Position numbers and translations under genes: made by a program. The notes under the pieces were generated by a model, which saw nothing but the letters and a program-made list of their open reading frames with translations, was not told where the DNA came from and searched no databases. A DNA stretch of 64,000 nt from a virus, in IMG/VR virus record IMGVR_UViG_3300022885_000003, positions 50,739-114,738 of that record. One strand, 5' to 3'. Below are positions 2,138 to 54,369 of the stretch, piece after piece. Every line of letters starts with the position of its first letter. Positions within the stretch are counted from its first letter, which is position 1.

Positions 2138-2506
2138 ATGCCTACTGATCCATTTGCATTACCTGTACAGAAACCAACAGGACCAACTATTATTAATATC
2201 ACTGACAGTGCTAAAGAGCATTTTGAAAATCTGCTCAAACAACACAATAAAAAAGCTATTCGATTCGGGGTTAAATCTGGAGGTTGCTCAGGTTTTACAT
2301 ATGATATTGATTTTACTGATGAAATTGAAAAGGGTGATGATATCATTCCATTAGAAAATGGAGATTTTGTTGTAGATGCAGCAAGTATCATGTTTGTAAT
2401 GGGTGTTGAGGTTGACTGGGTAACCGATATGATGGGATCTAGCTTTAGATTTACCAATCCAAATGCAACTGCTTCGTGTGGATGTCAAACAAGCTTTTCA
2501 GTATAA
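2138..2506 (+). CDS. iscA: Fe-S cluster assembly A-type carrier (IscA/HesB family)
   Basis: GGCSGFTY, F.NPNA..SCGC..SFS motifs; AGGAG SD. Confidence 0.93.
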   Translation: MPTDPFALPVQKPTGPTIINITDSAKEHFENLLKQHNKKAIRFGVKSGGCSGFTYDIDFTDEIEKGDDIIPLENGDFVVDAASIMFVMGVEVDWVTDMMGSSFRFTNPNATASCGCQTSFSV

Positions 2507-2796
2507 TGACAACTAGCGAATATTTTGGTAAATATTTTCAAGGACAGAATTGGAAAAAACCTACCTTACCCACAATTGATGTTTATTTGTATGGTCATGA
2601 AGGCATAGTATTATCATCAATAGATTGGTGCATCAACAATTGCAAGCATAGATGGGGTTGGTGTTTCGATAATTTTCCACCAAACATAGACGAGATAATA
2701 GAAAAACTATCCGCAGATGAGTTTGTACACCGAACACCAATTATGAAATTCGAATCCAAGCAAGAAGCCATAGAATTTAAACTTTATTGTTTATAG
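2506..2796 (+). CDS. Hypothetical protein, DA-x-x-FKL C-terminal module family
   Basis: TAATG overlap with iscA; WCINNCKHRWGW...MKFESKQEAIEFKLYCL. Confidence 0.75.
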   Translation: MTTSEYFGKYFQGQNWKKPTLPTIDVYLYGHEGIVLSSIDWCINNCKHRWGWCFDNFPPNIDEIIEKLSADEFVHRTPIMKFESKQEAIEFKLYCL

Positions 2797-2812
2797 CGAA
2801 CTTCTCCTGTAA

Positions 2813-2818
2813 TAAATA
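2813..2818 (+). promoter_or_regulatory. Late promoter (T4-late-like TAAATA)
   Basis: TAAATA about 30 nt upstream of the structural gene; the motif recurs before most structural genes. Confidence 0.6.
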
Positions 2819-2848
2819 CTTAGTAGAGTATTCTTACAAGGATTGCGC

Positions 2849-5800
2849 ATGTCTGACATAAAAAAATATATTGCAGTTACGAAGCCAGGAACAAATGACC
2901 AATTTGGTTATTATCTTGCATCAAACCGCATTGAACACACAAATATCACCCCAATGAATAGTCATTGGATTATAAACTGTACACATAAACAATATATCAG
3001 CATTCTCGGACGAAGCGAGATTGTTATCATTGAGGAAGATGTTGAATTTTCAACTTGTGCTGTTCAAAACTTGAATGGTGTGGTCGATGATAACTGGGGA
3101 TTGGATCGAATTGATCAACGCTCTACACAATTAAATAATGTTTATAAATTTAATCGGAATGGTTCAACTGTTGATATTTATGTAATTGATACAGGAATTA
3201 AGATTGACCACGAAGAGTTTGGAGGGAGAGCTTCGGTTCTATCCGACTTTGTTAATGAAACTGGTGTTGCCACAGGTCAAGATGGCAATGGTCACGGAAC
3301 TCATGTAGCAGCGACAGCGTGTGGTGCAACATACGGTGTCGCAAAAGCGGCGAAAGTCTTTTCCGCAAAAGCTCTAAATTCAGCAGGAAGTGGTTCAGGT
3401 TCAGCTATTATACAAGCTATGAACTCAGTCCTGTCACACCATGTATCCAAAACAAATAATCGCCCGTCAGTTGCCAATATGAGTATTGGATTTAATGGTC
3501 GGGTAACTTCTGTTGATCTAGCAGTTGCAAACTTGGTTAATGCTGGTATAGTTACAATAGTCGCTGCGGGCAATTCGAATCGACCAGCAATTGAAGTGTC
3601 GCCAGCTGGTGCCCCCGAAGCTTTTACGGTTGGTGCTATCGGCTTCGGCGATGCAAGAGCCAGTTTTTCTAATTTTTCTAGCGGGGATGGGCCAGGAGAC
3701 GGTGATAGGGGATTCGGAGAAGCTGGTATTTCAAACCTCGGATCAGCGGTTGATGTTTTTGCACCTGGTGTTGCTATTCGTAGTGCTGCACCATTTGAAG
3801 TACCATCATTCTTCTTGCGCGTTGATGCACCATTTGAAACAATTGTTGGTAGAGTTCCTGCAGGTGAAACAATTCTATCGACAAGATTTAGAGTATTCTT
3901 CCCATATGATGGTACAAGCCGTGTTAGGATTGGGACACGTTCTAACCCTACATTATTATTTGATGGTTCCCCTACATTCCTATCAAGAGTCCGAGATCTA
4001 AGACTAAATCCAAATATTATCTTACCAACAGATGAGGAAATCATTTTACAATATGAACAAAATGATTCTACACAAGGTTCTTTCCAGTCAAACATTACAT
4101 TATCAACCAAGGATGGAAGTCAAAGATTAAATGGTACGTCAATGGCTTGTCCTCATGCGGTTGGCGTTGCAGCATTATTCTTAGAAGATAAGCCAAGACC
4201 AACAAATTCAACTGGAGTACAAGAAGTTAAAGACTTTATGATCAACAATGCAACGGTTAATTCAATCCCCGATTTACCGATTGGAACCCCAAATCGGGTA
4301 TTGTTTAGCTTCTTTGTTGAAGAAGCATCATTCGAGTGGATTACTCTACCAGGAATTATCAGAAGCCAAGAAGAAAATACCGCTTTTAGCCAAACAGTGG
4401 TTGCTAGGTTTGTAGATGAACTCGGAAATGAACAACCGGTTACATACCAAACTAATCCAGATTTCCCAGTGTTCTTATCACTAAATCCAATAACAGGTTT
4501 ACTTACAGGTACCCTCCCTGAAGTCACCGAAGATACCGAATTTGAATTTACATTAACTGCTATTGCTCCTGATCTTAGTACAATCGACCAAGTATTTTCT
4601 ATTAATGTTCTCGATATACCAAACCGACCACCTATATGGGTTACACAACCGAACCAGATAAAAGTTGGTGTTACGCCACATGACCCAGTAGAAGGCGAAG
4701 TGGTTAGTTTCCAATTAGAAGCAACCGACCCTGAAGGATTGCCTATAACTTATTCCCTGCAAGTTGGTGAAAATCCAAGCAACCCTGGTGAAATTAGAAC
4801 TTCCGGATTGTTCTTAGATTCTAGCGGATTAATTTCTGGTACTGTATCAAATTTATTGGTAAATCAAACAATTTCATTTACCGTTAGAGCAAGTGACGGT
4901 GAACTAATTACTGATAGATCATTCTTTATTGACTTGATCGCAGTTAATTCATCTCCTTTATGGTTCCCATTGGTTGTTAGTGAACCAGTCGAAATATTAA
5001 CCGCTAGTCAAGGTGATACAATACTTTATGATTTTGCATTATTGACCAATGTTGATCATGCGGCGGATCCAGACAATGATCCATTGACATTTACTTTAGT
5101 TGGTGGCGCTCTTCCGAATGGTACAACACTTTCATCAGATGGTAAATTATCAGGTTCTCTCATTGGGAACGGTAATTTTGTCTTCACAATTGAAGTTACT
5201 GACACAGTGTTAAGTGCAACACGAGAGTTTTCTGTTGATGTTGCTGAAATTGTAACAAATCAACCGCCGGTATGGAATACACCAACCGGAAACATTGTAA
5301 CAGCAAATGAATTATCATTATTTATTTTCCAACTTAATGCAATTGACCCAGAAGCTGGATTGGTTACTTATGCGCCCAACCTGCAATTTGGTGAAGAATT
5401 CCCCGCTACGCTTAATATATCATCATCCGGATTAATTACCGGTACGTTGCCAAGCATTAATGAATCAACAAAGGTGTTTACCTTTACAGTAAATGCAAGT
5501 GATGGCGTTCTTGTTACACCCAGAGTTTTCGAAATCACCGTAAGTAATGTATCAGGTGATGTTCCACCCATTTGGATTACTCCGGAAGGTTCATTAGGAA
5601 CAACCGATGAATGCATTGATGCGATTTTCAAAGTTGAAGCAACTACTGCCGCAGTTTTAATTGATAGTGATAGTGAAGTAGATTTTGAATTAATCATTCA
5701 AGCGTTAACAGTGATTACTGAACTAGATGATCCACTAAATGATTTACCAAATGAAATCATTGAGGTACTAGCTGATGCTGGATTTGTATTTGATCCACTT

Positions 5801-14679: not shown

Positions 14680-14707
14680 ATTATAGCATTATTTCATTAA
14701 TAGTCAA
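14680..14707 (-). promoter_or_regulatory. Sigma70-like early promoter
   Basis: TTGACT-16nt-TATAAT with TG extension. Confidence 0.75.
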
Positions 14708-15014
14708 GTAAATTATTGACCATTGCATACATCATTTTGAATGTTATCGCGTCGTGTTCATTTGCAAAAAATACTCTAGAATTAAGTAGATAAAACACAC
14801 CACCAGTTAGATGATCGTCGATCCATGATTCAATTTCTTTATATTGTTCATTAGAAAGGCTTCTAGAAAAATGAACTACAATAATATCACCATCAGACAC
14901 CCCATCATCAAACGAATCAACCCCGAACGGAACATTGGGTTGCGCCCATCCCCATACATTATGCGTTACGCGCAATGTTTTTTTACTGTAAAGTGGTAAT
15001 CGTTCTATTGACAT
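14697..15014 (-). CDS. Hypothetical protein, DA-x-x-FKL module family
   Basis: IESWIDDHL...VFFANEHDAITFKMMY. Confidence 0.75.
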   Translation of the reverse strand: MSIERLPLYSKKTLRVTHNVWGWAQPNVPFGVDSFDDGVSDGDIIVVHFSRSLSNEQYKEIESWIDDHLTGGVFYLLNSRVFFANEHDAITFKMMYAMVNNLLDY

Positions 15015-15065: not shown

Positions 15066-15371
15066 TTATCCCCAAGTTAATTTGAATAATATGGCGTCTT
15101 GTTTCCTATAAAAGTATATTGTGGGAATATTTTGGATATGAACATAATACTTTGCATTTTCTTTCAACCATTCGTTTAATGTTGGGTTAACTTCGTATCT
15201 TACATACACATTTTGGCGTTCTTTTTGACGTCTATCTGGTATTTCCCAAAAACTCTTAACATGATCAATGATATCATACATAAATGGATATCGACCACCG
15301 GACAAACGGTAAAGAGATATAGAAATAACCATTGTTACTATTTCGGTCTTGGTATATTTTATGTTAGCCAT
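15066..15371 (-). CDS. Hypothetical protein, DA-x-x-FKL module family
   Basis: EWLKENAK...IYFYRKQDAILFKLTWG; start moved to ATG 15371. Confidence 0.78.
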   Translation of the reverse strand: MANIKYTKTEIVTMVISISLYRLSGGRYPFMYDIIDHVKSFWEIPDRRQKERQNVYVRYEVNPTLNEWLKENAKYYVHIQNIPTIYFYRKQDAILFKLTWG

Positions 15372-15373
15372 TA

Positions 15374-15667
15374 TTACATCCATACCAATCTGCATAAAAC
15401 AGCATCTTCTTTACGGAAAAAATAGATATAAGATCCATAACGATCAAGAATATAATATTTGCAATTTTGGCTCAACCAGATTTCAAAATTGGTAGTTGTT
15501 GAACCGATCGGAGGACATACGACACAAAGATTTTCCACTTTATCCAAATCAATACGATACGGATATTTTTTACAAGTAATGTGATATAATGTCGAAGACA
15601 GAGATATATTTTTAATCCAATGATAATACCAAAAAATTGTTACCAATGTTCTATTATAACGGTCCAT
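15374..15667 (-). CDS. Hypothetical protein, DA-x-x-FKL module family
   Basis: WLSQNCK...IYFFRKEDAVLCRLVWM. Confidence 0.78.
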   Translation of the reverse strand: MDRYNRTLVTIFWYYHWIKNISLSSTLYHITCKKYPYRIDLDKVENLCVVCPPIGSTTTNFEIWLSQNCKYYILDRYGSYIYFFRKEDAVLCRLVWM

Positions 15668-15668: not shown

Positions 15669-16025
15669 TTATCCCCATGCCAATTTAAACATTATTCGAT
15701 CGTTTTCATCTTGGAAATAAAAAACACCAGTAAATGATGGCCTCCATTCACCACTGCATGTTTCAATGATCCAAATAATTATATCACCGTAATTTTTAAC
15801 ACCTTTTTCGGATACCTTTATTACGGTTTTAGCTTCGGCAAAAGTTAAACTATCAAATTTAATCCTAGGAAGAAGTTCTGCATTTGGTCCTTTAAGCCAT
15901 TCTGGATACAAAGAAACCTTACCTCCAGACGCTTTCATAATTTGATAGACACCATTACTTAGCTGGGGATAAACCCAACCTTCAGGTAATTCTATATCAC
16001 AGTTTTTGGGTTTCTCAATATTCAT
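15669..16025 (-). CDS. Hypothetical protein, DA-x-x-FKL module family
   Basis: WIIETCSGEW...FYFQDENDRIMFKLAWG; paralogue of 31594-31947. Confidence 0.8.
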   Translation of the reverse strand: MNIEKPKNCDIELPEGWVYPQLSNGVYQIMKASGGKVSLYPEWLKGPNAELLPRIKFDSLTFAEAKTVIKVSEKGVKNYGDIIIWIIETCSGEWRPSFTGVFYFQDENDRIMFKLAWG

Positions 16026-16140
16026 ATTGGGTTATTATATTATAATTATATGATATTTGTCAATAGTAAACATAATGTTTTTTTATAATTGGTTAGGCTA
16101 AATAACAATGAGCAGCAGGTAAACATAAAAGGAAACTGAT

Positions 16141-21696: not shown

Positions 21697-21957
21697 ATGT
21701 TTATCCATAGTTCACCCTCATCGGATGATCCATATGGTCTGTACAATTACCAAATTTTAATAAGAGATCATTATCCGAACGAAGTCGTCAATTGGGTCAA
21801 TAATAAAAATATCACCAAATGGCTTTCAGTTAATTTAATGATAGAAGATTATGGCTATTCATGGATTGAAGAAACTTCTCAAGTTTCATTAGTAATTATG
21901 TTTAGTTTTCATGGTGATTATGTTCAATTCCTAAAAACATTCATATTATGTAAGTGA
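21697..21957 (+). CDS. Hypothetical protein (divergent DA-x-x-FKL module family member)
   Basis: ITKWLSVNL...IMFSFHGDYVQFLKTF. Confidence 0.55.
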   Translation: MFIHSSPSSDDPYGLYNYQILIRDHYPNEVVNWVNNKNITKWLSVNLMIEDYGYSWIEETSQVSLVIMFSFHGDYVQFLKTFILCK

Positions 21958-22373
21958 CTTTCATGGACCAATATAAACAGAGAGTAATCAAGTTTGTTAT
22001 TAATTGTTTAACCGGTTCAATCACAACCGTATTTGTTTTATCTATATATTGCTTACTAATTTGTATTATGGTGTTAATAGCTATTAATGAATCAATAAAA
22101 TACATCATTGACAAAATATACAAATATCAAGAAGATATAATGTATGATTACAATTTTAGAATAGATGAATTTAGAACATGGTCTAAAGGACAAATACCTT
22201 GGTATGCTTGGTATCACCGTAAGCAGCGTGTATACTATGATGAAGAAATGGATGTATTTTTTCCATTAAATGATTTTTTATCAAATGATATTGGTGGGTG
22301 CTATATAACAACCAGTTATAAACTATATTTTTTACGAAAATCAGATCAAGTGTTATACAAATTGAGTTTCTAA
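21954..22373 (+). CDS. Hypothetical protein with TM segment plus DA-x-x-FKL module
   Basis: Hydrophobic N-terminal helix; ends LYFLRKSDQVLYKLSF. Confidence 0.65.
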   Translation: MTFMDQYKQRVIKFVINCLTGSITTVFVLSIYCLLICIMVLIAINESIKYIIDKIYKYQEDIMYDYNFRIDEFRTWSKGQIPWYAWYHRKQRVYYDEEMDVFFPLNDFLSNDIGGCYITTSYKLYFLRKSDQVLYKLSF

Positions 22374-22428: not shown

Positions 22429-23247
22429 ATGATAACCAATGAAGCAACTAGTATTCGTCGTTCCATGCATCTGAACGTAACGGATATGAAATTCCTATCC
22501 GAAAAAGAACGACTTGTATTTTTAGAAAACAAGTTTATTATAGACATGGAAGATAACAAAGCATCAGAATCACCCATCGAAGAATTCTTTTCAACGATGC
22601 GTGACTCATGTAAGCATTTCTATCATGTAAGTTCTCCCGAGAAGAAAAATGACAGACTTGTTTATTACATTTATTTCTCTTCTAAAGATGATGTGCAGCG
22701 GATACATTCAAAAATATTAAAACCCATGGGGAAAGAGTTGAGTGAAAATGATATAATATTCTTGGATAATGAAACTAAAAGGAATATGTTGAATAATAAA
22801 TTTGCTCTAACTACATTAGAAGACGATGAATCTGATGAGATTGAGTGTCTAAAGCAGATTAGAGCAAAATATAAACACTATTTTTACATTGGTGCCACGG
22901 TTATAAGCAATGATAATAATTATGTAACACGACATATATATTTTGAAAATGCAAAGGATGCAGAAAAAATCAAATCAGAATATTTATCACCAACCAAAGA
23001 ACTCGTAACATCAGATTTAGAATGCCTGCGTGATGATATCAAATCTAAACTTTTGCAAAATAAATTCATTGTGCGAACAAATGAAGAAAAAAGAGATGCT
23101 ATCTTTGAAAATTATAAATCATGGCTTCGAGAAAATTGTGAAAGCTTTTTCTACTTGGGTGATAAGAAATATGATAAAGGTGATTCAGTATTCTATATCT
23201 ATTTTGAAGACCAAGAAGAAGCAAAATTATTTAAACTAACGTTTTAA
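22429..23247 (+). CDS. Protein of three tandem DA-x-x-FKL modules
   Basis: IYFSSKDDV, IYFENAKDA, IYFEDQEEAKLFKLTF; each preceded by L(E/N/Q)NKF. Confidence 0.8.
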   Translation: MITNEATSIRRSMHLNVTDMKFLSEKERLVFLENKFIIDMEDNKASESPIEEFFSTMRDSCKHFYHVSSPEKKNDRLVYYIYFSSKDDVQRIHSKILKPMGKELSENDIIFLDNETKRNMLNNKFALTTLEDDESDEIECLKQIRAKYKHYFYIGATVISNDNNYVTRHIYFENAKDAEKIKSEYLSPTKELVTSDLECLRDDIKSKLLQNKFIVRTNEEKRDAIFENYKSWLRENCESFFYLGDKKYDKGDSVFYIYFEDQEEAKLFKLTF

Positions 23248-28518: not shown

Positions 28519-28908
28519 ATGGCATACATGTTTAATCCAGAAGACTTTAGATGTACGGGATCGTATAATAGGATTAGTTCATTTAATGTTGGAAAAAATG
28601 GTAACACCGCAACATATGGTGAATGGGCGAAATCTGTTGCGGATTTTTTACCACATCATATATTGTTGAATAATCAACAACTAGGTGATAGTTTTCATCA
28701 CAGACGATGGATTTCATCAAATTGTAATTATTGGTGGACAAATTCAAACCTTACATCTTCTTATCTACTAAGAAAAAATAAAGATATACCCGAAGTGGGC
28801 GGATCACATACACCATTGAATAGTTTGCTATCTATTGTCTCATCAAAAGATTATTATTTGTTTGAAGATAAAAATGATGCAATTATTTTTCGACTATATG
28901 CTTCATAA
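28519..28908 (+). CDS. Hypothetical protein, DA-x-x-FKL module family
   Basis: WISSNCNYWW...YLFEDKNDAIIFRLYAS; TATAAT 7 nt upstream of ATG. Confidence 0.78.
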   Translation: MAYMFNPEDFRCTGSYNRISSFNVGKNGNTATYGEWAKSVADFLPHHILLNNQQLGDSFHHRRWISSNCNYWWTNSNLTSSYLLRKNKDIPEVGGSHTPLNSLLSIVSSKDYYLFEDKNDAIIFRLYAS

Positions 28909-28921: not shown

Positions 28922-29257
28922 ATGGCTGTAAGAGTTTATCTTAACAACTCCAACGAAACCAAAGAAGCTATTGAATGGATTGAGCAGCGTGGTATCAAAT
29001 ATAAGATTCTACGTGGAAACAAAGCAGTCGATCCTGATACTCGAGTAAGGGCTCCTAATATGTGGAGATCTAGTCATCATTCTTATTTCGGTATTGAATC
29101 ATATACAGAAACTGAAAAGGATGAATTCTATCCAAGAATTAGAAACTCTATCTTGTATGAAAATGGCCCCAACACGGAACACAACAAAGACTATTCAGTT
29201 GGATTCGTATTATTTGATGAAAAAGAAGCGATCGAATTTAAACTTATTTACGGCTGA
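28922..29257 (+). CDS. Hypothetical protein, DA-x-x-FKL module family
   Basis: GGGGAAG SD; AIEWIE...[17 protein letters not shown]. Confidence 0.75.
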
Positions 29258-31141: not shown

Positions 31142-31591
31142 TTAACCCCACGTCATCTTAATTAAAACCAAATCTTGTTTTGTCGTATTATATGGGTCGA
31201 TATCATTTTCTTTAAACCAACTCAGAGGTATATGGCCTCCATTCAAATACCACGCATTTGATCCATCTACGCCTTCAACAGCCGGACCATCATGTCGATG
31301 TAATTCCCCATTCACATACCACTGGTTTGTTCCATACTTAAATTCAAGAGCTGGCCCATCAATTCGATGTAGTTTTCCGTCCTTGTACCATACCTTTGAT
31401 CCATCCGCAGATTCAATAGCTGGTCCATCAAGTCGATGTCGTTTTCCATCAACCCACCACTCCTTTGTTCCATCTGCATCTATAAGAGCTGGGCCGCCAT
31501 CTCGATGCAGGAATAATAATGATGACTGATATTCATCATTAGATATCCATTTGTCTCCATCTCTTGTCCATATATGAATATTCTTTTCCAT
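31142..31591 (-). CDS. HRxDGPA-repeat protein with C-terminal LIKMTWG helix
   Basis: Four (L/R)HRxDGPA-type repeats. Confidence 0.8.
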   Translation of the reverse strand: MEKNIHIWTRDGDKWISNDEYQSSLLFLHRDGGPALIDADGTKEWWVDGKRHRLDGPAIESADGSKVWYKDGKLHRIDGPALEFKYGTNQWYVNGELHRHDGPAVEGVDGSNAWYLNGGHIPLSWFKENDIDPYNTTKQDLVLIKMTWG

Positions 31592-31593
31592 AT

Positions 31594-31947
31594 CTAGCAC
31601 CATGTCATTTTAAACAACACTGCGTCATCGCAGTTTTCGAACCAATACAAATCACCGGAAAGACTGCACCATTTATGTTCAGTATTTTCTATTATCCATA
31701 TAATTTTTACTGGGTACATCCCATCAGAATTGAATTCTCGTCGTGTGAAAAATGTTTCAACCATATGTCCGTCATCAATATCACCGCTGTCCAATTTGTC
31801 ATTATATCGTGGCAGATTGCCTAAATCAGAAGTTAGCCATTCCGGATAATTTTCAATTTTTCCTTGAAAATGTTTCATAATCTCAACAACACCAATACTG
31901 ATTTTTCTTTTATTCCAACCAGTTGGATATTCTAGTTCATTTGTCAT
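31594..31947 (-). CDS. Hypothetical protein, DA-x-x-FKL module family
   Basis: WIIENTEHKW...YWFENCDDAVLFKMTWC. Confidence 0.8.
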   Translation of the reverse strand: MTNELEYPTGWNKRKISIGVVEIMKHFQGKIENYPEWLTSDLGNLPRYNDKLDSGDIDDGHMVETFFTRREFNSDGMYPVKIIWIIENTEHKWCSLSGDLYWFENCDDAVLFKMTWC

Positions 31948-31948
31948 T

Positions 31949-32287
31949 TTATCCCCACGCCAACTTAATTAAGAGTTGATCTTCAATTGATGGCGGCAAC
32001 TCAATTCCCATTTCGTCTAGCCATGAATCAATCCTTTGATCATTGACCCAATATTGCTCTTCTATAATGTTTCCGGACATGAAATACTTGGTGCAAGCTG
32101 GGCCATCAATTCGATGTCTTTTTCCGTTGTTATAATACAAAGCATCATTCAGAATGTTTCCTGGATAATAACTGATAAACGCTGGACCATCTTCTCGATG
32201 AAAACAAAACTTGGGGGGAATTCGGTAACGCTCCTCAAATAAATTACCATCCATCCCGTAAGTTTGTGTTCGGATTACATTTTCCAT
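31949..32287 (-). CDS. HRxDGPA-repeat protein with C-terminal LIKLAWG helix
   Basis: FHREDGPA, RHRIDGPA; ends EDQLLIKLAWG. Confidence 0.78.
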   Translation of the reverse strand: MENVIRTQTYGMDGNLFEERYRIPPKFCFHREDGPAFISYYPGNILNDALYYNNGKRHRIDGPACTKYFMSGNIIEEQYWVNDQRIDSWLDEMGIELPPSIEDQLLIKLAWG

Positions 32288-32289
32288 TT

Positions 32290-32526
32290 TTAACACCATA
32301 CCATTTTGAACAAAGTGGCCTCTTCGATATCATATATACAAAAAATCATCCTAGAAAGATGCTCATAATTAGTAATATTATCCATTAGCCATGTATTCAA
32401 CATTTCAACTTCGAAATATTCAGTAATTAGAATACTAAAATAAACGGCGGGTTCAAGGCGAAGATGTTCAAGATAAAAATCTTCCCGGTCAGCTTGAACA
32501 ACAACTAAGGTATCGATATCTTCCAT
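32290..32526 (-). CDS. Hypothetical protein, DA-x-x-FKL module family
   Basis: WLMDNI...IEEATLFKMVWC; TAATG coupling. Confidence 0.75.
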   Translation of the reverse strand: MEDIDTLVVVQADREDFYLEHLRLEPAVYFSILITEYFEVEMLNTWLMDNITNYEHLSRMIFCIYDIEEATLFKMVWC

Positions 32527-32915
32527 TATAGTTCCCCGCCCCAACATATCTGCATTAATACTTGTTCTTCTTTAGTAATATTGGTTATGTCGATGATATT
32601 ATCCTTGATCCATTCATCCGGGATTCGATTCCCATCCACAAACCACGCTTTGGTTCCATCTGGATATTCAATAGCTGGTCCATCAATTCGGTGTCGATTC
32701 CCGTTTATAAACCACTCTTTTTTACCATTGGCGCGTTTGATTGCGGGGCCATCGGCGTGGTGGCGTTTTCCGTATATATACCATTCAACTGATCCATTTT
32801 TAAATACAACCGCTGGGCCATTAATTCGATGTAGAGCGTTTCGATATAGATCGTTATCAATAAACCACATCTTTGTACCGTATGGAGAAATATCTGGATT
32901 AGTCTTTTTAGACAT
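32526..32915 (-). CDS. HRxDGPA-repeat protein
   Basis: Three repeats; ends TKEEQVLMQICWGGEL. Confidence 0.78.
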   Translation of the reverse strand: MSKKTNPDISPYGTKMWFIDNDLYRNALHRINGPAVVFKNGSVEWYIYGKRHHADGPAIKRANGKKEWFINGNRHRIDGPAIEYPDGTKAWFVDGNRIPDEWIKDNIIDITNITKEEQVLMQICWGGEL

Positions 32916-32962
32916 TATCAATTATCCACATGAATATATCTTTTCATATTAGCCAATGTTTA

Positions 32963-33423: not shown

Positions 33424-33451
33424 ATTATAACATGGAATGACGACATGTCAA
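33424..33451 (-). promoter_or_regulatory. Sigma70-like early promoter
   Basis: TTGACA-16nt-TATAAT with TG extension. Confidence 0.8.
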
Positions 33452-33453: not shown

Positions 33454-33723
33454 TTACGAAAAGGTTAAACGGAATAAAACAGCGTCTTCTTTAGATTTAA
33501 AATAAAAGGATTTTACGCCAGTGTAATAAAGGTCCGATGAGGTGCTATACCATTCATCGGTTACATTGTTAATAATCCATATACGTAACTGCCAAACCGA
33601 TGTTCCAATTGCGTGTCTCAATGAGTCTGACATTTCAACCGGGTTCCAAGTATCAAATACTTCTCTCTTCTTAGCCGCTCGTTCGACGCCCAGCAATGTA
33701 TGTACTTCAAGATCCGACATCAT
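33454..33723 (-). CDS. Hypothetical protein, DA-x-x-FKL module family
   Basis: WIINNVTDEW...FYFKSKEDAVLFRLTFS. Confidence 0.78.
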   Translation of the reverse strand: MMSDLEVHTLLGVERAAKKREVFDTWNPVEMSDSLRHAIGTSVWQLRIWIINNVTDEWYSTSSDLYYTGVKSFYFKSKEDAVLFRLTFS

Positions 33724-34267: not shown

Positions 34268-34295
34268 ATTATAACATGGATCGATATGTTGTCAA
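34268..34295 (-). promoter_or_regulatory. Sigma70-like early promoter
   Basis: TTGACA-16nt-TATAAT with TG extension. Confidence 0.8.
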
Positions 34296-34685: not shown

Positions 34686-34916
34686 TCATTGCTGCCACAC
34701 CAGTTTCACCATAACAGCATCTTCAAGTGAAAGGCTAAAGATCATATCAGGTGAACCAGTATAACATTTAATATCAAATATACCGTTTAATTCCAAATTT
34801 ATCCACTTTAGGAATTTGGCATATTCATAACCATCATCAAAATCAAGTGTATAGTGTTTCTTATTTCGATCTAAGTGAAATCTTTCGATTTCATTTTCTT
34901 TTAATTCAACCAACAT
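34686..34916 (-). CDS. Hypothetical protein, DA-x-x-FKL module family
   Basis: LKWINLEL...FSLSLEDAVMVKLVWQQ. Confidence 0.72.
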   Translation of the reverse strand: MLVELKENEIERFHLDRNKKHYTLDFDDGYEYAKFLKWINLELNGIFDIKCYTGSPDMIFSLSLEDAVMVKLVWQQ

Positions 34917-35499: not shown

Positions 35500-35527
35500 A
35501 TTATAACACCATTATGTAAAATGTCAA
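35500..35527 (-). promoter_or_regulatory. Sigma70-like promoter predicting a leaderless mRNA
   Basis: TTGACA-16-TATAAT, 6 nt before ATG 35493. Confidence 0.75.
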
Positions 35528-45617: not shown

Positions 45618-45676
45618 AGTATGTCCAATCTTTATTCCAATGCAAATATTATAACACTGGAACAAGGATTGTCAAA

Positions 45677-46501: not shown

Positions 46502-46511
46502 TTAATCCTCC

Positions 46512-46844
46512 TTATTTCGAATCCAATGATAATTTTAACATTATTGCGGTATCTCGATCCTTAACAAATAACGACGCTCTCTTATCACTCATATGAAGTT
46601 TACGGGTATCCCAATCAATGGCAAATTCGCCGACATTATCGCGCAACCATTTACAAACTTCCATATTATGACGAACATTGACAAGAACCGGACAATTAAC
46701 TATTCCAGCTTCTTCCCGTTCATTATATTCGTCACGAACTTTATCATAACATTCATTGCTCTCGCAATTTTTAGGATGATAATCTCTTCTCATCAAATAA
46801 TATAGATCTCGTGAAGTTTTAGTCTTATAATCATCTTCTCGCAT
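46512..46844 (-). CDS. Hypothetical protein, DA-x-x-FKL module family
   Basis: KWLRDNVGEF..DW...LFVKDRDTAIMLKL. Confidence 0.75.
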   Translation of the reverse strand: MREDDYKTKTSRDLYYLMRRDYHPKNCESNECYDKVRDEYNEREEAGIVNCPVLVNVRHNMEVCKWLRDNVGEFAIDWDTRKLHMSDKRASLFVKDRDTAIMLKLSLDSK

Positions 46845-47398
46845 TATGCAACTCCGATCTCGCCAGCCATTACCAACTTTGTCAATACGGCGTTCTCCTT
46901 CGTATCAACGAATATTACTTCATTGCGAACATGCCAGTTTAGACCATATTCACCAATGTTCTCTTTGAGCCAGTCCAGCGATTCCTTAGAAACATATCTG
47001 TCATCACATAACGCCGGATAATAGACTGTTCCGATACCATTACCAAGTTCGATCTGACAATTCTTTTGCCCTAGTTTGTCAATAGCCACTTCCAATAGCT
47101 GCTTACAATACTTCCCAATTCGAGACGTATTCGAACCCTTCCGGCACGGTTTCTGCCAATACGCAATTTGCTTTTCCGTCAAAAATCCCCGATTCTTATA
47201 GAACTTGGCCATGCCAGTCCCTTTCTTGGCATCATTAACAGCAAAACCCTCCGAATTGGCAAATCGGGTAATTTCCACTGTCGCCTCATAATGCGTTTGT
47301 CGATTCAATAAATGAACCAATGCTCGACCAACCGCGTGCATTCCAACTTCGTCTTTCCGGTCTAAAACGTTTTTAATAGTGTCAACTGTCGGCAACAT
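46844..47398 (-). CDS. Two-domain protein ending in DA-x-x-FKL module
   Basis: DWLKENIGEYG.NW...IFVDTKENAVLTKL; AGGAG SD; TTGACA-17-TATAAT upstream. Confidence 0.78.
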   Translation of the reverse strand: MLPTVDTIKNVLDRKDEVGMHAVGRALVHLLNRQTHYEATVEITRFANSEGFAVNDAKKGTGMAKFYKNRGFLTEKQIAYWQKPCRKGSNTSRIGKYCKQLLEVAIDKLGQKNCQIELGNGIGTVYYPALCDDRYVSKESLDWLKENIGEYGLNWHVRNEVIFVDTKENAVLTKLVMAGEIGVA

Positions 47399-47457
47399 AT
47401 TCGATCTCCTTATTTTGTACCACCATTATAGCACCAGGAATGACTGGTGTCAACCTT

Positions 47458-47766
47458 CTACATAAACGTTAATTTGAATAAAGTAGCATCAGATTTGAGT
47501 TCAAACCGTATTACGGTTAATGGTTCATCAGTTGATGTAAAATCCACTGAATGATATCTCGCCGTTGCCCAAGCGCCATTCATATTGTCCCAAACCCATT
47601 GTAGTATTTCATCATAATCTGGAGTGCCGCCTAGGGTAATCGGAATCGTGTAAGGAAGCATAACACAATCACCGGTTTTCCTATTTTCATCTGCCGGAGC
47701 GTGTTTTTTCGCAGGACCACAATGAGCATTGTGTGTCAAATATACAGGGCATTCTAAACAATTCAT
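47458..47766 (-). CDS. Cys-rich (Zn-binding?) DA-x-x-FKL module protein
   Basis: MNCLEC...CGP...DC; IRFELKSDATLFKLTFM. Confidence 0.8.
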   Translation of the reverse strand: MNCLECPVYLTHNAHCGPAKKHAPADENRKTGDCVMLPYTIPITLGGTPDYDEILQWVWDNMNGAWATARYHSVDFTSTDEPLTVIRFELKSDATLFKLTFM

Positions 47767-47767: not shown

Positions 47768-48079
47768 TTAATTCCAAGTTAACTTAAATTTAACAGCATC
47801 TTCTTCAAGTTCAAATTTAAATTCAAAAAGATCTTCTTCATGTTCTGGTCGGTGCCTTCTAGGAACATAAGTCCAGTCACCTTTGTTATTAGAATTTAAC
47901 CAACTTAACATGTCGAACCCGTATATAGCTGATTGATGTTCTTCTAAAGTTGGTTTTGATATTACAACTGTATATTCTAGTCGTTGACATGAATGATATT
48001 TTCGCCCGTCGATTGGATAATACCATTCATCGGTTTTGTAGCCACATGTTTCTTTAAATTGACATGTTTCACAATCCAT
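47768..48079 (-). CDS. Cys-rich DA-x-x-FKL module protein
   Basis: MDCETC...CG...SC; FKFELEEDAVKFKLTWN. Confidence 0.8.
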   Translation of the reverse strand: MDCETCQFKETCGYKTDEWYYPIDGRKYHSCQRLEYTVVISKPTLEEHQSAIYGFDMLSWLNSNNKGDWTYVPRRHRPEHEEDLFEFKFELEEDAVKFKLTWN

Positions 48080-48285
48080 TAATCATCATTCCATGTCATT
48101 TTAAATAAAATTGCTACAGAATAGTCATGAATTCTCATACCATCTCCACTAATTGTATAATCAGTCTCATCATAGCCGCGACTATCAAACCAATTCCTAA
48201 CTTTATCCATTAATTGACGAGTAGAAATCATGCTCCTGCCGCGCTTATTTCTCGGCATTAATTCATGAAACCAAAATATAGTCAT
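48079..48285 (-). CDS. Hypothetical protein, DA-x-x-FKL module family
   Basis: VRNWF...VAILFKMTWNDD. Confidence 0.7.
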   Translation of the reverse strand: MTIFWFHELMPRNKRGRSMISTRQLMDKVRNWFDSRGYDETDYTISGDGMRIHDYSVAILFKMTWNDD

Positions 48286-48286: not shown

Positions 48287-48628
48287 TTAATCCCATGTTA
48301 ATTTAAACATAATAGCGTCTTCTTCAAATTCAAATTTAAATTGCATATAGTCATTTTTAATATTATGCCTTAAATTTTCACGATCTTCAATTTTAAAATT
48401 TGAACGGGCAGTCCAAGCACCCTTAATATTTTCTTCAATCCATGTGGTTAATTTCAAATATTCAACACCGTGCGTATGTTTTCCTCTTAATATATTGGTA
48501 ACATGTGGTAATATTAAGCAATTATCGGATTTTTGTTTATGAGGCGACTTGTAAAAAATCATGTGCCGGGCTTCAAACGGGCCACATTCATTAACAGCTT
48601 GATCGATATTACAATCGTTGCAATCCAT
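48287..48628 (-). CDS. Cys-rich DA-x-x-FKL module protein
   Basis: MDCNDC...CGP...NC; WIEENIKGAW; FKFEFEEDAIMFKLTWD. Confidence 0.8.
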   Translation of the reverse strand: MDCNDCNIDQAVNECGPFEARHMIFYKSPHKQKSDNCLILPHVTNILRGKHTHGVEYLKLTTWIEENIKGAWTARSNFKIEDRENLRHNIKNDYMQFKFEFEEDAIMFKLTWD

Positions 48629-48922
48629 TTAAATTAACATCCTAAACATCACAGCATCCTCTTCGTCTTCAAAATAGAAAAATGTTCCACCGTGATCTCC
48701 ATCTCCTTGTCTGTCTACTCCCCATCTACCCTTACATGTTTCATGAACAATTGCCATAAAATCAATTATTTTAAATCTGTTTTCTTCGTTAACAAAGACA
48801 CAGTGTTCAAATATAAATCGAAGATTTGATCTTCGCTCATATCGACTGTCTGATATAATCTCTTCATATTTTTCATCTTGCCTAATACTATATTCAAACA
48901 TTAGTTCAATATAATTTACCAT
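48629..48922 (-). CDS. Hypothetical protein, DA-x-x-FKL module family
   Basis: ETCKGRW...FYFEDEEDAVMFRMLI. Confidence 0.78.
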   Translation of the reverse strand: MVNYIELMFEYSIRQDEKYEEIISDSRYERRSNLRFIFEHCVFVNEENRFKIIDFMAIVHETCKGRWGVDRQGDGDHGGTFFYFEDEEDAVMFRMLI

Positions 48923-48930: not shown

Positions 48931-49221
48931 TCACACATCTATATCCATAAATGTCATTTTTGCTAAAATTGCATCCTCTTTGAGTTCAAATTTAAATCGC
49001 ATCGGGCTTAGAGCAAGTCCTGACCTATAACTCAATGTTCCTTTGCAATTTTCATCAATCCAATCAACTACATCCGTTAAATGCCTTCCTTTTTTAAAGG
49101 GTATAATAACAAAATGTTTCAAATATATGCAATTGGAAGTTTTTGCATTTGATTCACCCGTAGTAAATAATGGTCCACATGGATCAACACTCGAATAAAT
49201 TGGGCAATTTTCACAATCCAT
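48931..49221 (-). CDS. Cys-rich DA-x-x-FKL module protein
   Basis: MDCENC...CGP...NC; WIDENCKG; FKFELKEDAILAKMTF. Confidence 0.8.
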   Translation of the reverse strand: MDCENCPIYSSVDPCGPLFTTGESNAKTSNCIYLKHFVIIPFKKGRHLTDVVDWIDENCKGTLSYRSGLALSPMRFKFELKEDAILAKMTFMDIDV

Positions 49222-49294
49222 AAACAATCTCCTAATACTAATATATTAACAAATAAATATAGATATGTCAATTAAATACAAGTATAATTAAAAT

Positions 49295-50167: not shown

Positions 50168-50221
50168 AATTGCGTTCATCCATACATATATTATAAATAT
50201 GCGTTATGTTTCCTTTTAAGG

Positions 50222-50249
50222 TTGACAAGTGTTATACTCAGTGTATAAT
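50222..50249 (+). promoter_or_regulatory. Sigma70-like promoter
   Basis: TTGACA-16nt-TATAAT. Confidence 0.75.
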
Positions 50250-50282
50250 GCACTGATAATTTACTTTTAGATTGGATCGAAA

Positions 50283-50732
50283 ATGAAAATGTTACAGGCT
50301 TTTATTATCGCAGCAACACTAACAGTTTCATTTGTTGTAAACGCCGTTGCGTTTGAAAGTTCACAGCTTGGTACTGTTCAGGGGAACGCGGCGGCGCAAA
50401 ACTTGTGTCGGCATTGGGTTGTTAAAGTTGAACGCAATGCAACGATAGCACAGAGCTGGTTGGTTCGACATACGAACGGTTTGAGCGGAAACAAACTCGG
50501 CGCTGGTTATCCACAATACGCGAAGATTTTCGATTATGATACAGGAAATGGTTACCGCACGTTACTTGTAGATGTTGGTTGGGAATTGCGCGACGTTAAT
50601 TACGTAATTGCACGCAACCCAAACATTCACCCAGAAACCAAAGCCGCCCAATGCGAGGCAAATGGTAAGCAAGCAAACCTGGCGGTAATTGAATTATATG
50701 AAAAGCTGAATCCAGGAGACAAAATCCCATGA
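50283..50732 (+). CDS. Secreted/periplasmic protein
   Basis: Sec-type signal MKMLQAFIIAATLTVSFVVNAVA-F. Confidence 0.7.
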   Translation: MKMLQAFIIAATLTVSFVVNAVAFESSQLGTVQGNAAAQNLCRHWVVKVERNATIAQSWLVRHTNGLSGNKLGAGYPQYAKIFDYDTGNGYRTLLVDVGWELRDVNYVIARNPNIHPETKAAQCEANGKQANLAVIELYEKLNPGDKIP

Positions 50733-51226
50733 AACTTGAACTACTTCCTGAGAACGACAAATTTCTAAAAACAGTTTGCCCACCGTTTGATTTCAAATCA
50801 ACTGATATAGATACTGTTGATCTCTCGAGAAGTATGCTTGAATTAATGCATGAAAACGACGGTATTGGGTTGGCTTGTCCACAAGTTGGCTTAAACCAAA
50901 GAATGTTTGTAATGGGGCTTGACGGGGTTGAACTTGTATGTTATAATCCTGAAATACTAAACGAATCGGGTAAAATTATAACGATCCAAGAAGGTTGTTT
51001 GAGTTATCCAGATTTGTTTATGAAGGTAAAAAGGATTGAATCTATCCAAATTCGATATCAAGATGTTTTAGGAAAGGTGAATGAGGATGAATTGACAGGA
51101 ATTTTTGCCAGGTGTTTCTTGCACGAATTAGATCACCTGAATGGTATTGTATTTTTAGATCGCGTTGGTCGAGTAACCACGCAAATGGCAAAACAGCGTA
51201 GACACAAACAAAGGAAGAAATCATAA
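50729..51226 (+). CDS. def: Peptide deformylase
   Basis: GIGLACPQ, EGCLS, HELDHL. Confidence 0.95.
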   Translation: MKLELLPENDKFLKTVCPPFDFKSTDIDTVDLSRSMLELMHENDGIGLACPQVGLNQRMFVMGLDGVELVCYNPEILNESGKIITIQEGCLSYPDLFMKVKRIESIQIRYQDVLGKVNEDELTGIFARCFLHELDHLNGIVFLDRVGRVTTQMAKQRRHKQRKKS

Positions 51227-53511
51227 TGACTATGCAACCACAATTTGATGTTTCGGAAGTTGAAAACACCCTTCGTAAAGCATCAGCCGATGCCAGTAAC
51301 AGGAACCAGCAATATGTTGTACTTGAGCATATTTTGCATGTTCTATTAACTGAAGAAACCGTTACGACGGTACTTGAAGATGCAAAGGTTGATGTTGTTG
51401 AATTGCAAAACAATGTCGAAACATATCTTTCATCAAACATGATCCCAGCAACAACTAGGCAGGTCCAGCCTAAAGAATCCGAAAATGTTATTATTGTTAT
51501 CCAGCAAACGGTTGCTCGTTGTCGCGCTGGTGGTCGGAATAAAGCAACATATTTTGATCTTCTCATTACTGTTTGTGAGCAGGACGGTTCCCACGCAGAA
51601 TACTTCTTCGGCCAGGCCGGCGGCGATCCAGCAACGTTGAAACAGGCTATCGTTGATACCACCGGTGAAGATGAACCGGATATGATTATGACCCCAATGG
51701 GGCCGATGCCCAATCCGAACGCCAAGAAGGCGGCGATGACGGAGAAGAAGGCGAAAGAAGTTCTTGAAAAGTTCTGCATGAATCTTAATGAACGCGCCAA
51801 GGACGCCAAAATCGATCCACTAATCGGGCGAGAAGACGAGATCCTGGACACCGTTCATATTGTTTCTCGACGCACTAAGAACAATGTTGTGCTAACCGGT
51901 GAACCCGGTGTTGGTAAGACGGCTATCGCTGAAGGGCTTGCAAAGCTTATCGTCGAGGAAAATGTTCCAGACACTGTAAAGGAAGCGGTTGTTTACAGTT
52001 TGAACATCGGCGCCCTAATTGCCGGTACCAAATATCGAGGAGAATTTGAAGAACGGATGCAGGACATTCTCGAAGCACTTGAGTTCGTTGATACCCCGAT
52101 CCTGTTTATTGACGAAATTCACATGATCATGGGCGCCGGGTCCGGTGGTAGTGGTAGCATGGACGTTGCTAATCTCTTGAAGCCAGCGTTGGCTAAGGGT
52201 TATTTGCGCTGTATCGGCTCCACTACGCTTGAAGAATTCCGAAAGCATTTTGAAAAGGACCGGGCACTGCTTCGTCGCTTTACAAAGGTCGCTGTTGAGG
52301 AGCCGTCAATTGACGACAGTATCAGGATCCTTGAAGGCCTCAAGTCCTACTATGAAGATTTCCATAAGGTAACGTATGATTCAGAAGGACTGGCTTTAGC
52401 TGTTAAATTGACAGACCGTTATATTACAAATCGTTTCCTTCCTGATAAGGCGATTGATGTTATGGACGCGGCTGGTGCCCGGCAGCGTATCCGGCCTGCC
52501 GAAGAACGTGTTGATATCATCACCTCGGAACTAATCGAAGACGAAGTTTCAAGACTTGCGAAAATTCCTCCTCAGACAGTTAAGGAAGATGAAGCGGCCA
52601 AGTTAGAACGACTCGGCGACGACCTTGAAAAGGTTGTGTTTGGTCAAGGGGATGCCCTACTTGCGTTGCAGGAAGCGGTCTATATGTCCAGGGCAGGGCT
52701 TCGAAATAAGCTCAAGACGCAAGGAGCGTTTTTGTTTACTGGACCAACTGGTGTTGGTAAGACTGAGTCAGCTAAACAGCTTGCCGCTACACTGGGTATT
52801 GAACTGGTTCGATTCGATATGTCGGAATACATGGAGAAGCATACCGTATCCAAGCTTATCGGTGCACCTCCAGGATATGTTGGCTTCGAAGATGGTGGTG
52901 CCGGGTCAGGACTATTGACCAACGAAATTGAGCAGCATCCACATTCTGTGCTATTGCTCGACGAAATTGAGAAGGCTCACCCAGACGTGATGAACGTTCT
53001 CCTACAAGTTATGGATAACGGTCGCCTTACCAATAGCGACGGTAAGACTGTTGATTTCCGGAACGTGATCTTGATTTTGACCACAAACCTTGGTGCAACT
53101 GAGCGAGATAAACCATCGATTGGCTTTACTTCAGCTGATAACGACGATGCCGATGTGAAGGTTATCGAGAAGGCATTGAGCCCAGAGTTCCGAAACCGGC
53201 TTGATGCAATCGTCCGCTTCAAGAAGCTTAGTCAGGATATCATGATCAAGGTGGTAAACAAGTTCTTGAAGGCAACCGCTGAACTCGCAGTTGAGCGAGA
53301 CGTGACGATCATAGTAACCGACGCTGGGCGTGAATGGCTTGCCGATAAGGGTTACGACCCAAAGATGGGCGCTCGGCCTCTAGAGCGAGTCATTAACAAT
53401 AACATCGTAAAGCCAATGAGTCGAGAAATGTTGTTCGGTCAGCTAGTCGGCGGCGGCACGGCAACTGTTGATCTTGCAGATGATGCACTAGTCATTACAT
53501 ATAGCAAGTAA
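51226..53511 (+). CDS. clpA: ATP-dependent Clp protease ATP-binding subunit ClpA-like
   Basis: Clp N-domain; two AAA+ modules ([16 protein letters not shown]); IGF ClpP-docking loop; no ClpB coiled coil. Confidence 0.93.
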
Positions 53512-53521
53512 GGATATTTAC

Positions 53522-53544
53522 GGGAGGGTAGTTTCTGCCCTCCC
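53522..53544 (+). terminator. Hairpin terminator after clpA
   Basis: gggagggtag-ttt-ctgccctccc. Confidence 0.65.
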
Positions 53545-53592
53545 ATTCCTTATGAATATAATTTAAAATACAAAAATAATAGGAAATTATAA

Positions 53593-54369
53593 ATGGGGGC
53601 GGGTGCATCAAAGCTAGACAAACTCGTGTTGGATTGCGAAAAAAATAATATCAAATGCTCTAGAATTTTGAAATTATTTTACAAGAAATATCCGTACAAA
53701 TTAGTTATGTCAGGCGAATATCTAAAATCATCGCAACGTCCACCACCATCATATAAAAAAGAAAAGCTAGGCACTTATGCACTGCTTATGTTACACTTGG
53801 GATCTTGTTTTGGCAAGGAAAAAACCATTGATCTATTAGATAACAATGATATTAAAATATATAATAGCCAAAGCACGAATATTTTTTTTAAAAATGAAGA
53901 TGAATTTATAAAATTTGTGCAATTGTCTAAAGAATATATAAAGGAAATATCTGTTATTGAATCTACAGATTTATTAGAACTTTTAGATAATGATCACGAA
54001 GTAATTTTTAAGAAACAATATTACTTTAAGAAATTTCCATTTCGTGTTCAGATGTCAAGTTATACAGTAGATGCTTCTCTAGAACAGATGGGTTTAATAA
54101 TACAGGAGACAGGAAACCGTTTCACGGTGGGGTTGAGGTATCGATATGATGCAGTATTCGAAAGGCATAAAAAGAATGCTCGGCAAGAATATTTCGAGGA
54201 TTGGGCTAAAGATAATTTACAGAACCCATTTCAACGTTGTAGAGTACGTGGTAAACAGGAGGTGCCGACGATATTTTTCTTAGAATGCCAGGACGTTATT
54301 TTGTTTAAGATGCAATTTACAGATTATATAACCAACATCGATAGAATCACATTACTTGATCAGGGATAA
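53593..54369 (+). CDS. Two-repeat protein related to the DA-x-x-FKL module
   Basis: LFYKKYPYKL...IFFKNEDEFIKF and YYFKKFPFRV...IFFLECQDVILFKMQF. Confidence 0.7.
   Translation: MGAGASKLDKLVLDCEKNNIKCSRILKLFYKKYPYKLVMSGEYLKSSQRPPPSYKKEKLGTYALLMLHLGSCFGKEKTIDLLDNNDIKIYNSQSTNIFFKNEDEFIKFVQLSKEYIKEISVIESTDLLELLDNDHEVIFKKQYYFKKFPFRVQMSSYTVDASLEQMGLIIQETGNRFTVGLRYRYDAVFERHKKNARQEYFEDWAKDNLQNPFQRCRVRGKQEVPTIFFLECQDVILFKMQFTDYITNIDRITLLDQG

Follow-up and report, generated by a model that had tools for sequence, protein, structure and literature searches.

A virus-only Trp/Phe-core domain multiplied in jumbo phages: a candidate panel of separate binders encoded in putative early arrays

The DNA analysed here (the window) spans the final 64 kb of a 114.7-kb IMG/VR contig with a completeness of 31% (CheckV), a fragment of an uncultured giant phage in which one small domain occurs in about 25 old, diverged copies. 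The relatives of this phage are jumbo phages of the group that includes Sinorhizobium phage Phosso and Agrobacterium phage Atu_ph07; a megablast comparison of 12 kb of the window with cultured phages gave no match. The domain, which has a core of Trp and Phe residues, is virus-only and widespread. The reading that we favour, with about even confidence, is that it was expanded in jumbo phages, in arrays that would be expressed early, and that each paralogue acts as a separate binder. Together the paralogues would probably form a panel whose members bind different host targets.

A first-pass annotation had described a family of about 26 genes, and all of the ORFs that it claimed are present and end in the motif given for them. 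Their C-terminal homology was assessed with a family HMM built on the last 60 aa of 21 ORFs, with the 1054 six-frame ORFs of the contig as the target. Leave-one-out HMMs regained 17 of the 21 ORFs at E<1e-3 against these 1054, and in the reversed-ORF control the best E was only 0.2-0.65; by these two measures the homology is significant. An HMM dominated by external sequences retrieved 25 contig ORFs at E<=1.4e-3, of which 19 lie in the window and 6 further upstream; a later HMM added the gene at 46512. In all, 20 of the listed genes are supported, and 5 or 6 additional copies are located upstream of the window. That the family is unreal, a chance motif or a set of non-coding ORFs, has the shortness of the motif and nothing else in its favour. 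It is ruled out by leave-one-out E values down to 1e-12, reversed controls at E>=0.2, 1182 external relatives and the selection data, and we assign it practically no probability. The median dN/dS of orthologues is 0.15 (n=19), compared to 0.11 in neighbouring genes (n=40), so that the family genes are real and maintained; the orthologues evolve under purifying selection, with every copy conserved. No gene-wide positive selection was found by dN/dS, and an ongoing arms race is therefore not demonstrated.

The solid members, 20 in number, are placed along the window as follows (E values are leave-one-out values unless stated otherwise). One, which was outside the HMM seed, lies on the plus strand at 2506..2796 (HMM E 2.6e-9 to 8.6e-7). 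The minus-strand array 16025-14697 holds 14697..15014 (E 1.3e-5; 9 aa past the module), 15066..15395 (E 1.3e-11), 15374..15667 (E 9.3e-12) and 15669..16025 (E 1.4e-6), with a perfect sigma-70 consensus promoter upstream of it at 16034..16063 (minus). Two plus-strand members follow: 22429..23247, for which a promoter matching 11/12 positions was found at 22375-22404, and 28519..28908, which has a long hairpin insertion (E 2e-6). On the minus strand, the operon 33388-31142 includes 31594..31947 (E 1.6e-8) and 32290..32547 (E 5.6e-8), downstream of a perfect site at 33424..33451; 33454..33723 (E 1.1e-9) belongs to 34236-33454, with a perfect site at 34268..34295, and 34686..34916 (E 3.9e-4; broader HMM 8.8e-14) to 35493-34686, with another at 35500..35527, all three sites being on the minus strand.

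The largest array, 49227-46512 (minus, eight genes), begins with 48931..49227 (E 1.5e-12), for which a 10/12 promoter with a TG element is predicted at 49271-49243. It continues with 48629..48922 (E 9.6e-7), 48287..48628 (E 1.2e-10), the short member 48079..48285 (E 5.5e-4 to 1.4e-3 with the HMMs), 47768..48079 (E 2.2e-9) and 47458..47766 (E 4.6e-9). A further perfect site at 47425..47453 (minus) stands upstream of its last two genes (47398-46512), namely 46844..47398 (E 3.8e-4), in which the module is fused behind a phrog_21015 domain (residues 6-106, E 6e-11), and the divergent 46512..46844 (E 8.5e-5; leave-one-out 0.02). The last member, 53593..54369 (plus, E 7.2e-7), encodes 258 aa and has a single supported module close to the C-terminus, with 15 aa after it.

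The remaining six of the roughly 26 proposed genes are less secure. Three are marginal: 21954..22373 (plus, E 0.014-1.6), in which a TM-like hydrophobic N-terminal segment is visible in the sequence, 28922..29257 (plus, E 0.01-0.2) and the gene at 21697 (E 0.1-5). The other three, 31142..31603, 31949..32299 and 32526..32921 (all minus), have visible HRxDGPA repeats and non-significant HMM scores (E 0.3-46). Their tails retain just the W-helix and the terminal helix, the beta-hairpin being missing. A regular expression for these two helices matches 4/6 HRxDGPA-type proteins and 24/5565 other ORFs, all of the latter visibly sub-threshold family members. We read the trio as a putative hairpin-less variant of the module, which probably goes back to one ancestral event. 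When the HRxDGPA proteins were checked for a MORN profile, the sole Pfam match was to DUF6745 (31142, E 3e-4), short of its cut-off.

Internal repeats had been proposed for two genes. The three tandem modules of 22429..23247 were borne out (pairwise Z 10.6-12.8, 0/500 shuffles as good; the last copy scores E 8.6e-11, and the last helix is degenerate in the first two), and the second module in 53593 was rejected (Z 2.3, 16/500 shuffles). The N-termini, said to differ completely, mostly do, but three subgroups have related ones: 15669 and 31594 (blastp E 1.6e-9 over the N-terminal part); the Cys-cluster proteins 47458, 48287 and 48931, with 47768; and the HRxDGPA trio.

The length of 45 aa first given for the module is too short. 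The homologous region takes in one more strand upstream and an additional conserved Trp, and the unit amounts to an entire small domain (about 65-75 aa), modelled as beta1-alpha1-beta2-beta3-alpha2. Two AF2 models reach a pLDDT of 81-96 across the module (in 48287: H53-67, E72-79, E92-99, H102-112); the predicted order is that of a generic ferredoxin-like half-sandwich, with the final strand of the sandwich missing. The most conserved positions are W13, W36, C/L37, L41, W45, F59, F61, A67, F70, L72 and W74, and N40, D66 and K71 are also conserved. These mostly aromatic positions look like a hydrophobic core with helix caps and not like a docking face, though N40, D66 and K71 may form a small conserved surface patch. 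A Zn or other metal site at the Cys pair of helix 1 was considered and dropped, the two Cys being present in just 33% and 18% of sequences with no further conserved ligands. The hairpin loop varies from 0 to 35 aa between copies. Among 405 members the median protein length is 85 aa, and in 96% of 401 members the module ends <=6 residues from the C-terminus; apart from tandem repeats it is practically never N-terminal or internal. A pure scaffold model offers no account of this near-absolute placement.

A structure comparison with VIA gave a best Z of 6.7 (rmsd 2.2-2.5 across 55-60 residues) and 42 chains at Z>=5. Foldseek found no match in the PDB at E<=1e-3 for either AF2 model, and a structural search of BFVD returned weak rows only, from uncharacterised proteins of uncultured Caudovirales, PA5oct and Atu_ph07. 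The module resembles ferredoxin-like and split beta-alpha-beta domains (ACT, RRM, KH, the N-domain of V-ATPase subunit a) in its two-layer alpha+beta layout, but lacks their fourth strand and any sequence similarity to them; such a common fold teaches nothing about function. One possible explanation is nevertheless that the proteins are small nucleic-acid-binding regulators with an RRM/KH/ACT-like sandwich, for instance translational or transcriptional regulators of early genes, each acting on a separate RNA or DNA target. KH, RRM and ACT domains are indeed among the VIA neighbours at Z 5-6.7, and the genes lie among those for replication and nucleotide metabolism, but the neighbour list is flat and generic with no chain at Z>=8, the members are mildly acidic (median pI 5.7, 56% below 6), K71 is the sole conserved basic residue, and Pfam gave no RRM or KH match. 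We consider this explanation improbable.

Another scenario is that of self-associating half-ferredoxin units, which would form mixed oligomers with themselves or with paralogues and serve, for example, as assembly factors or decoys. Natural tandem fusions speak for it (the three copies of 22429-23247 and the external two-copy proteins P0014, P0020 and P0022), and a fold of one three-stranded sheet and two helices, both very hydrophobic, would be small for a stable monomer. Against it, few proteins are tandem forms (at E<1e-3, the 405 ORFs contain 405 domains), and the AF2 model of the tandem P0022 has a pTM of 0.44, its first copy being so poorly modelled that the packing is unreadable. The chances of this scenario appear slim.

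The first-pass annotation recognised no characterised family, and database searches agree. In Pfam-A, no family was matched consistently at E<=0.1 by 10 window and 82 external members; in PHROGs v4 one of the 82 external members matched phrog_19083 (E 2.5e-4), with no consistent family; NCBIfam 20 gave no match, and a sequence profile search of the PDB nothing under E 0.12. A full-text literature search with motif strings and Phosso yielded no relevant paper, and no mention of the family was found in it. Alignment-based homologue search retrieved 11 metagenomic proteins, and a single-member query only itself; by tblastn with single members, P0016 had no match and P0022 only Phosso, at E 0.5. 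External relatives nevertheless amount to at least 1182 representative clusters (50% identity, E<=1e-3), mostly 55-150 aa long with the module at the end. IMG/VR loci were chosen by a degenerate DNA motif and then checked by HMM, and 102 of 105 contained supported members (421 ORFs in total, with as many as 20 in 12 kb). Compared to the 25 copies in the 115-kb fragment, related near-complete genomes have 39 (561 kb), 30 (465 kb), 11 (424 kb) and 6 (359 kb); the short carrier contigs are 10-48% fragments of similar-sized genomes. Of the cultured phages, Phosso has 21 copies and Atu_ph07 two, and RaK2-like and Vibrio jumbo phages have none. In 596 Gb of cellular genomes 99 motif matches were obtained, with only 2-4 real ones, which are phage-contig-like, and the neighbours in the ESM Atlas are without exception viral clusters labelled 'hypothetical protein'. 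Many paralogues per genome, tandem arrays and one phage lineage mark a lineage-specific expansion.

Perfect TTGACA-N16-18-TATAAT sites occur eight times in the window, compared to 0.125 expected and a maximum of two in 200 simulations. Five of the eight are directly upstream of operons with family genes, which bears out the earlier remark that several clusters lie behind sigma70-like promoters. In other contigs, only 6/29 perfect promoters have the end of a same-strand family gene <=1.5 kb downstream of them. A sigma-70 site directly upstream, as in T4-type early genes (a consensus match only), suggests that the window arrays are expressed early; no transcriptome was located in the literature for Phosso or Atu_ph07. 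The arrays have genes for replication and nucleotide metabolism (MazG, dCMP deaminase, clamp loader, PhoH) as neighbours, and their MazG...DnaE-fragment position is common to Phosso.

The annotation had gone further and proposed a constant docking module with variable heads, converging on one hub. Under this explanation the C-terminal domain would dock on a phage ClpA-like unfoldase, a host protease, RNA polymerase or the clamp, and the variable parts would recruit targets. The position of the module at the very C-terminus would fit a recognised free end, and some members do have distinct N-terminal parts. A ClpA-like ATPase is present in 4/4 near-complete carriers (47-54% identity to 51226-53511). 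In the window the eight-gene array and 53593 flank a DnaJ-deformylase-ClpA cluster, the array ending 2 kb upstream of it and 53593 lying directly downstream. The carrier genomes are kin, however, so that co-occurrence with ClpA is not independent evidence, and we rejected it as evidence for a hub; moreover, Vibrio phage 2.275.O and E. coli phage CRJP21 both encode ClpA yet lack any copy, and Atu_ph07 has only two. Most members are barely more than the domain, heads being exceptional, and the residues that are conserved, aromatic and hydrophobic ones, are those expected in a core. As the conserved positions look like a folding core, docking on one hub is unsupported. The suggested resemblance to F-box-type adaptors found no backing either: Pfam matched no F-box (PF00646), ClpS (PF02617) or other adaptor family in the members, and the only F-box row in BFVD had a probability of 0.06. 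We regard the adaptor explanation as unlikely, and similarly doubt its most attractive form, in which the domain would be a handle for the phage ClpA-like unfoldase working with DnaJ and a ClpP. If that were true, at least 25 paralogues would be programmable substrate adaptors, by which selected host proteins, e.g. defence proteins, would be directed early in infection to be unfolded or degraded.

Known viral expansions offer partial parallels. Bacillus phage G has a zinc-ribbon family of ~35 copies, a lineage-specific expansion in a jumbo phage (Iyer et al. 2021, PMC7824862), and the present family is absent from the text of that review. Both families consist of dozens of diverged small-domain paralogues in one jumbo-phage genome, with a role in host interaction or regulation proposed; ours differs in being a beta-alpha-beta-beta-alpha sandwich of a group-2.2-like Atu_ph07/Phosso lineage. 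Poxvirus ankyrin/F-box-like and giant-virus BTB/F-box expansions are likewise large paralogue families with a constant element and variable remainders, but they have no sequence or fold relation to this one, in which the entire fold is the constant part. The family also recalls the early genes of T4: in both cases the proteins are small and mostly acidic, and their tight, co-directional operons follow consensus sigma-70 promoters and lie between genes for replication and nucleotide metabolism. The hyperplastic regions of T4 encode small host-takeover proteins behind strong sigma-70 promoters, which are mostly unrelated singletons, whereas here one domain is repeated at least 25 times and early timing is predicted from promoter consensus.

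Taken together, these results are most consistent with a panel of separate binders. A lineage of 350-560-kb phages related to Phosso and Atu_ph07 would have multiplied the domain into dozens of old, diverged paralogues, packed in tight tandem operons; in the present phage, the consensus sigma-70 promoters of the arrays are probably used early by the host RNA polymerase. The conserved residues would make the fold, and the surfaces would differ between copies in the hairpin loop and the N-terminal extension, with the occasional addition of a Cys cluster, a TM-like segment, HRxDGPA repeats or the phrog_21015 domain. Since the fold residues are constant and the surfaces vary, each paralogue is most likely a separate binder, which we infer would engage a different host (or phage) target in takeover or counter-defence. 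Of the repertoire first envisaged, the large real family behind early-type promoters stands, which makes a host-takeover or anti-defence role a reasonable inference, but the convergence on one hub is unsupported.

Comprising at least 1182 clusters (50% identity) and reaching dozens of copies in a single genome, the family is among the largest gene families seen in phages and a visible share of the 'dark matter' in the largest cultured and uncultured ones. Since cultured Phosso carries about 21 copies, timing, toxicity and partners are measurable in a laboratory host. The domain is a compact natural scaffold of 55-85 aa with diversified surfaces, and naming it would be an immediate gain for the annotation of jumbo phages.

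The translations of the ORFs listed in the first-pass annotation do carry the proposed C-terminal ending, and 21 of them supplied their C-terminal 60 residues as seeds for an HMM. Beyond these seeds it recovered 2506 within the window plus six copies farther upstream in the contig, the best E for reversed ORFs being 0.65; in leave-one-out tests 17 of the 21 seeds were recovered at E<1e-3 (best 1.5e-12). With an HMM made up mainly of unrelated external sequences, 25 contig ORFs scored at E≤1.4e-3, and a later HMM added 46512. The family had been put at about 26 genes: twenty window members are solid, 21954, 28922 and 21697 are only marginal, and the three HRxDGPA-repeat proteins (31142, 31949 and 32526) received no HMM support for the module. 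Gene 22429-23247 indeed encodes three copies of the module in tandem (Z 10.6-12.8), whereas the second copy proposed for 53593 was without support. The N-termini, described as completely different, are mostly unrelated, but three subgroups exist. In 46844-47398, the N-terminal 106 residues, fused before the module, match phrog_21015 (unknown function; E 6e-11).

In the HRxDGPA trio the Trp-helix and the terminal helix are present and the hairpin is missing. A regular expression for the two helices matched four of six HRxDGPA-type proteins and 24 of 5565 other ORFs, all of the latter visibly sub-threshold family members. We read the HRxDGPA proteins, from their sequences, as a probable hairpin-less derivative of the module; as they are mutually paralogous, the loss was counted as one event. 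These proteins with MORN-like repeats form a small family, found at 31142-32921 in the window and, farther upstream, at contig 45855-46721, one having 10 repeats and most terminating in the two helices without the hairpin.

The module of 48287-48628 was modelled by AlphaFold2 as helix-strand-strand-helix (pLDDT 81-96), and an external member with better coverage as strand-helix-strand-strand-helix. This extra strand, together with a conserved Trp about 23 residues ahead of the main Trp in a profile of 405 members, indicates that the unit is a domain of about 65-75 residues and not the 45-residue tail first described. The informative positions of that profile are W13, W36, C/L37, N40, L41, W45, F59, F61, E65-D66-A67, F70-K71-L72 and W74. 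By helical periodicity, the hydrophobic ones would lie on faces that pack onto the sheet and onto the second helix; D66 would occupy the helix N-cap, and N40, which precedes a Gly, the C-cap. Foldseek gave no significant match for the module models, and no family was found for the module in Pfam, PHROGs, NCBIfam or by PDB sequence-profile search. The structure search returned a flat list of generic neighbours (ACT, RRM, KH, V-ATPase subunit a N-domain, designed ferredoxins; best Z 6.7, none at 8); nucleic-acid binding is considered a lesser alternative for the family's activity. ESM Atlas neighbours were viral "hypothetical protein" clusters only. One member of the external alignment matches the Pfam Gp23 major capsid protein weakly (E 0.0034), and the nearest Pfam-labelled Atlas cluster carries Gp23 on 13% of its members.

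When 1.84 billion representative sequences were searched with a profile built from 17 of the window's modules, 1182 proteins matched at E≤1e-3, including a few long repetitive proteins that are likely false positives; nearly all matches are 55-150 aa long, with the matched region C-terminal. In IMG/VR, 105 loci were picked by a degenerate DNA motif for EDAxxFKLxW; 102 contained HMM-supported members, totalling 421 family ORFs, which run co-directionally in arrays reaching 20 genes within 12 kb. Whole-record counts in near-complete genomes were 39 (561 kb), 30 (465 kb), 11 (424 kb) and 6 (359 kb). Phosso has 21 copies and Atu_ph07 two; no copy was found in one Vibrio and one E. coli RaK2-like jumbo phage. 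Since the shorter carrier contigs are 10-48% genome fragments, the family looks confined to the Phosso/Atu_ph07 jumbo-phage lineage. Searched against 596 Gb of genome sequence from bacteria and archaea, the same motif gave 99 loci, about the number estimated to arise by chance; only 2-4 of them are real. Among these, a Sphingobium contig carrying four copies is probably phage DNA, as is a Microvirga contig of high coverage. The former (JBPPMC010000261.1, 85 kb), from a Sphingobium sp. MAG and binned as bacterial, is probably a mis-binned jumbo-phage contig, a hint that one relative may infect a sphingomonad.

The window itself covers bases 50739-114738 of a 114,738-bp IMG/VR virus contig (GC 33-41%), whose CheckV completeness of 31% points to a genome size of about 350 kb or larger. 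Tail fibres, a baseplate connector and RNA ligase are among the products of the window's large genes, as is a ClpA-like ATPase (51226-53511). This ATPase shares 53.5% identity with its counterpart in Sinorhizobium phage Phosso (469 kb) and 48% with the one in Agrobacterium phage Atu_ph07 (490 kb); identity to the RaK2-like and Vibrio jumbo-phage versions is about 41%. DnaJ (49295-50167) and peptide deformylase (50729-51226) are encoded upstream of it, an order shared with Phosso; in Atu_ph07 DnaJ is immediately upstream of ClpA. This proteostasis cluster (49295-53511) also holds an uncharacterised 149-aa gene and is followed by a strong terminator-like hairpin at 53522-53544. The 16-29 kb region encodes MazG, dCMP deaminase, a DnaE fragment, a clamp-loader ATPase, 5'-nucleotidase and PhoH. 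A stand-alone 186-aa fragment (19877-20437) matches the DNA polymerase III alpha NTPase domain and is placed like the Phosso "DnaE-like" gene, downstream of MazG and small family genes. A 1412-aa protein (2843-7081) has a protease-like PHROG match; the next, of 726 aa (7138-9318), has many tail-fibre and collagen-like PHROG matches through short repeated stretches.

Family members have a median length of 85 aa and a median pI of 5.7, and in 323 of 401 cases the module runs to the very last residue; in 96% it ends no more than six residues short of it. This strict C-terminal position is best explained by the adaptor scheme originally proposed, in which a constant module docks on one hub such as the ClpA-like ATPase; the core-like conservation pattern, the small size of most members and the phyletic pattern of ClpA do not favour that scheme, and we consider it unlikely. 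A Met-(Arg/Lys)-x-x-Glu-Leu-x-Glu leader was found at the N-terminus of no translated family ORF.

Median dN/dS was 0.15 for orthologous family genes (n=19; the pairs are partly redundant) and 0.11 for neighbouring genes (n=40). Seven pairs of related contigs at 81-88% nucleotide identity were tried; of these, the external pair L090/L117 yielded no rows, and the pair L026/L065 no family gene. The value of 0.15 indicates that the copies are real genes, each maintained; gene-wide positive selection was not seen in the 19 comparisons.

Eight perfect TTGACA-N16-18-TATAAT sites occur in the window (16034-16063, 29889-29917, 33424-33451, 34268-34295, 35500-35527, 45648-45675, 47425-47453 and 50222-50249) against 0.125 expected and a maximum of two in 200 simulations; the whole contig has 12. 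As the annotation had noted, promoters precede family clusters: five of the eight, each of them a minus-strand site (16063, 33451, 34295, 35527 and 47453), lie directly upstream of family-containing operons, and near-perfect sites precede 14697, 22429, 28519 and 48931. External loci hold 29 perfect sites against 1-2 expected, but only six have a same-strand family gene ending within 1.5 kb downstream. In T4-like phages, consensus sigma-70 promoters mark early genes, transcribed by the unmodified host polymerase; by analogy we infer that the family arrays are expressed early. The eight sites suggest that the early regulon is large and that the host uses a canonical sigma-70.

The data are consistent with a small, stable scaffold that keeps one core while its loops and termini vary from copy to copy. 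Self-association of members is a lesser alternative. Multiplication of the scaffold would have produced a panel of early proteins, each retained by selection and most likely each binding a different target.
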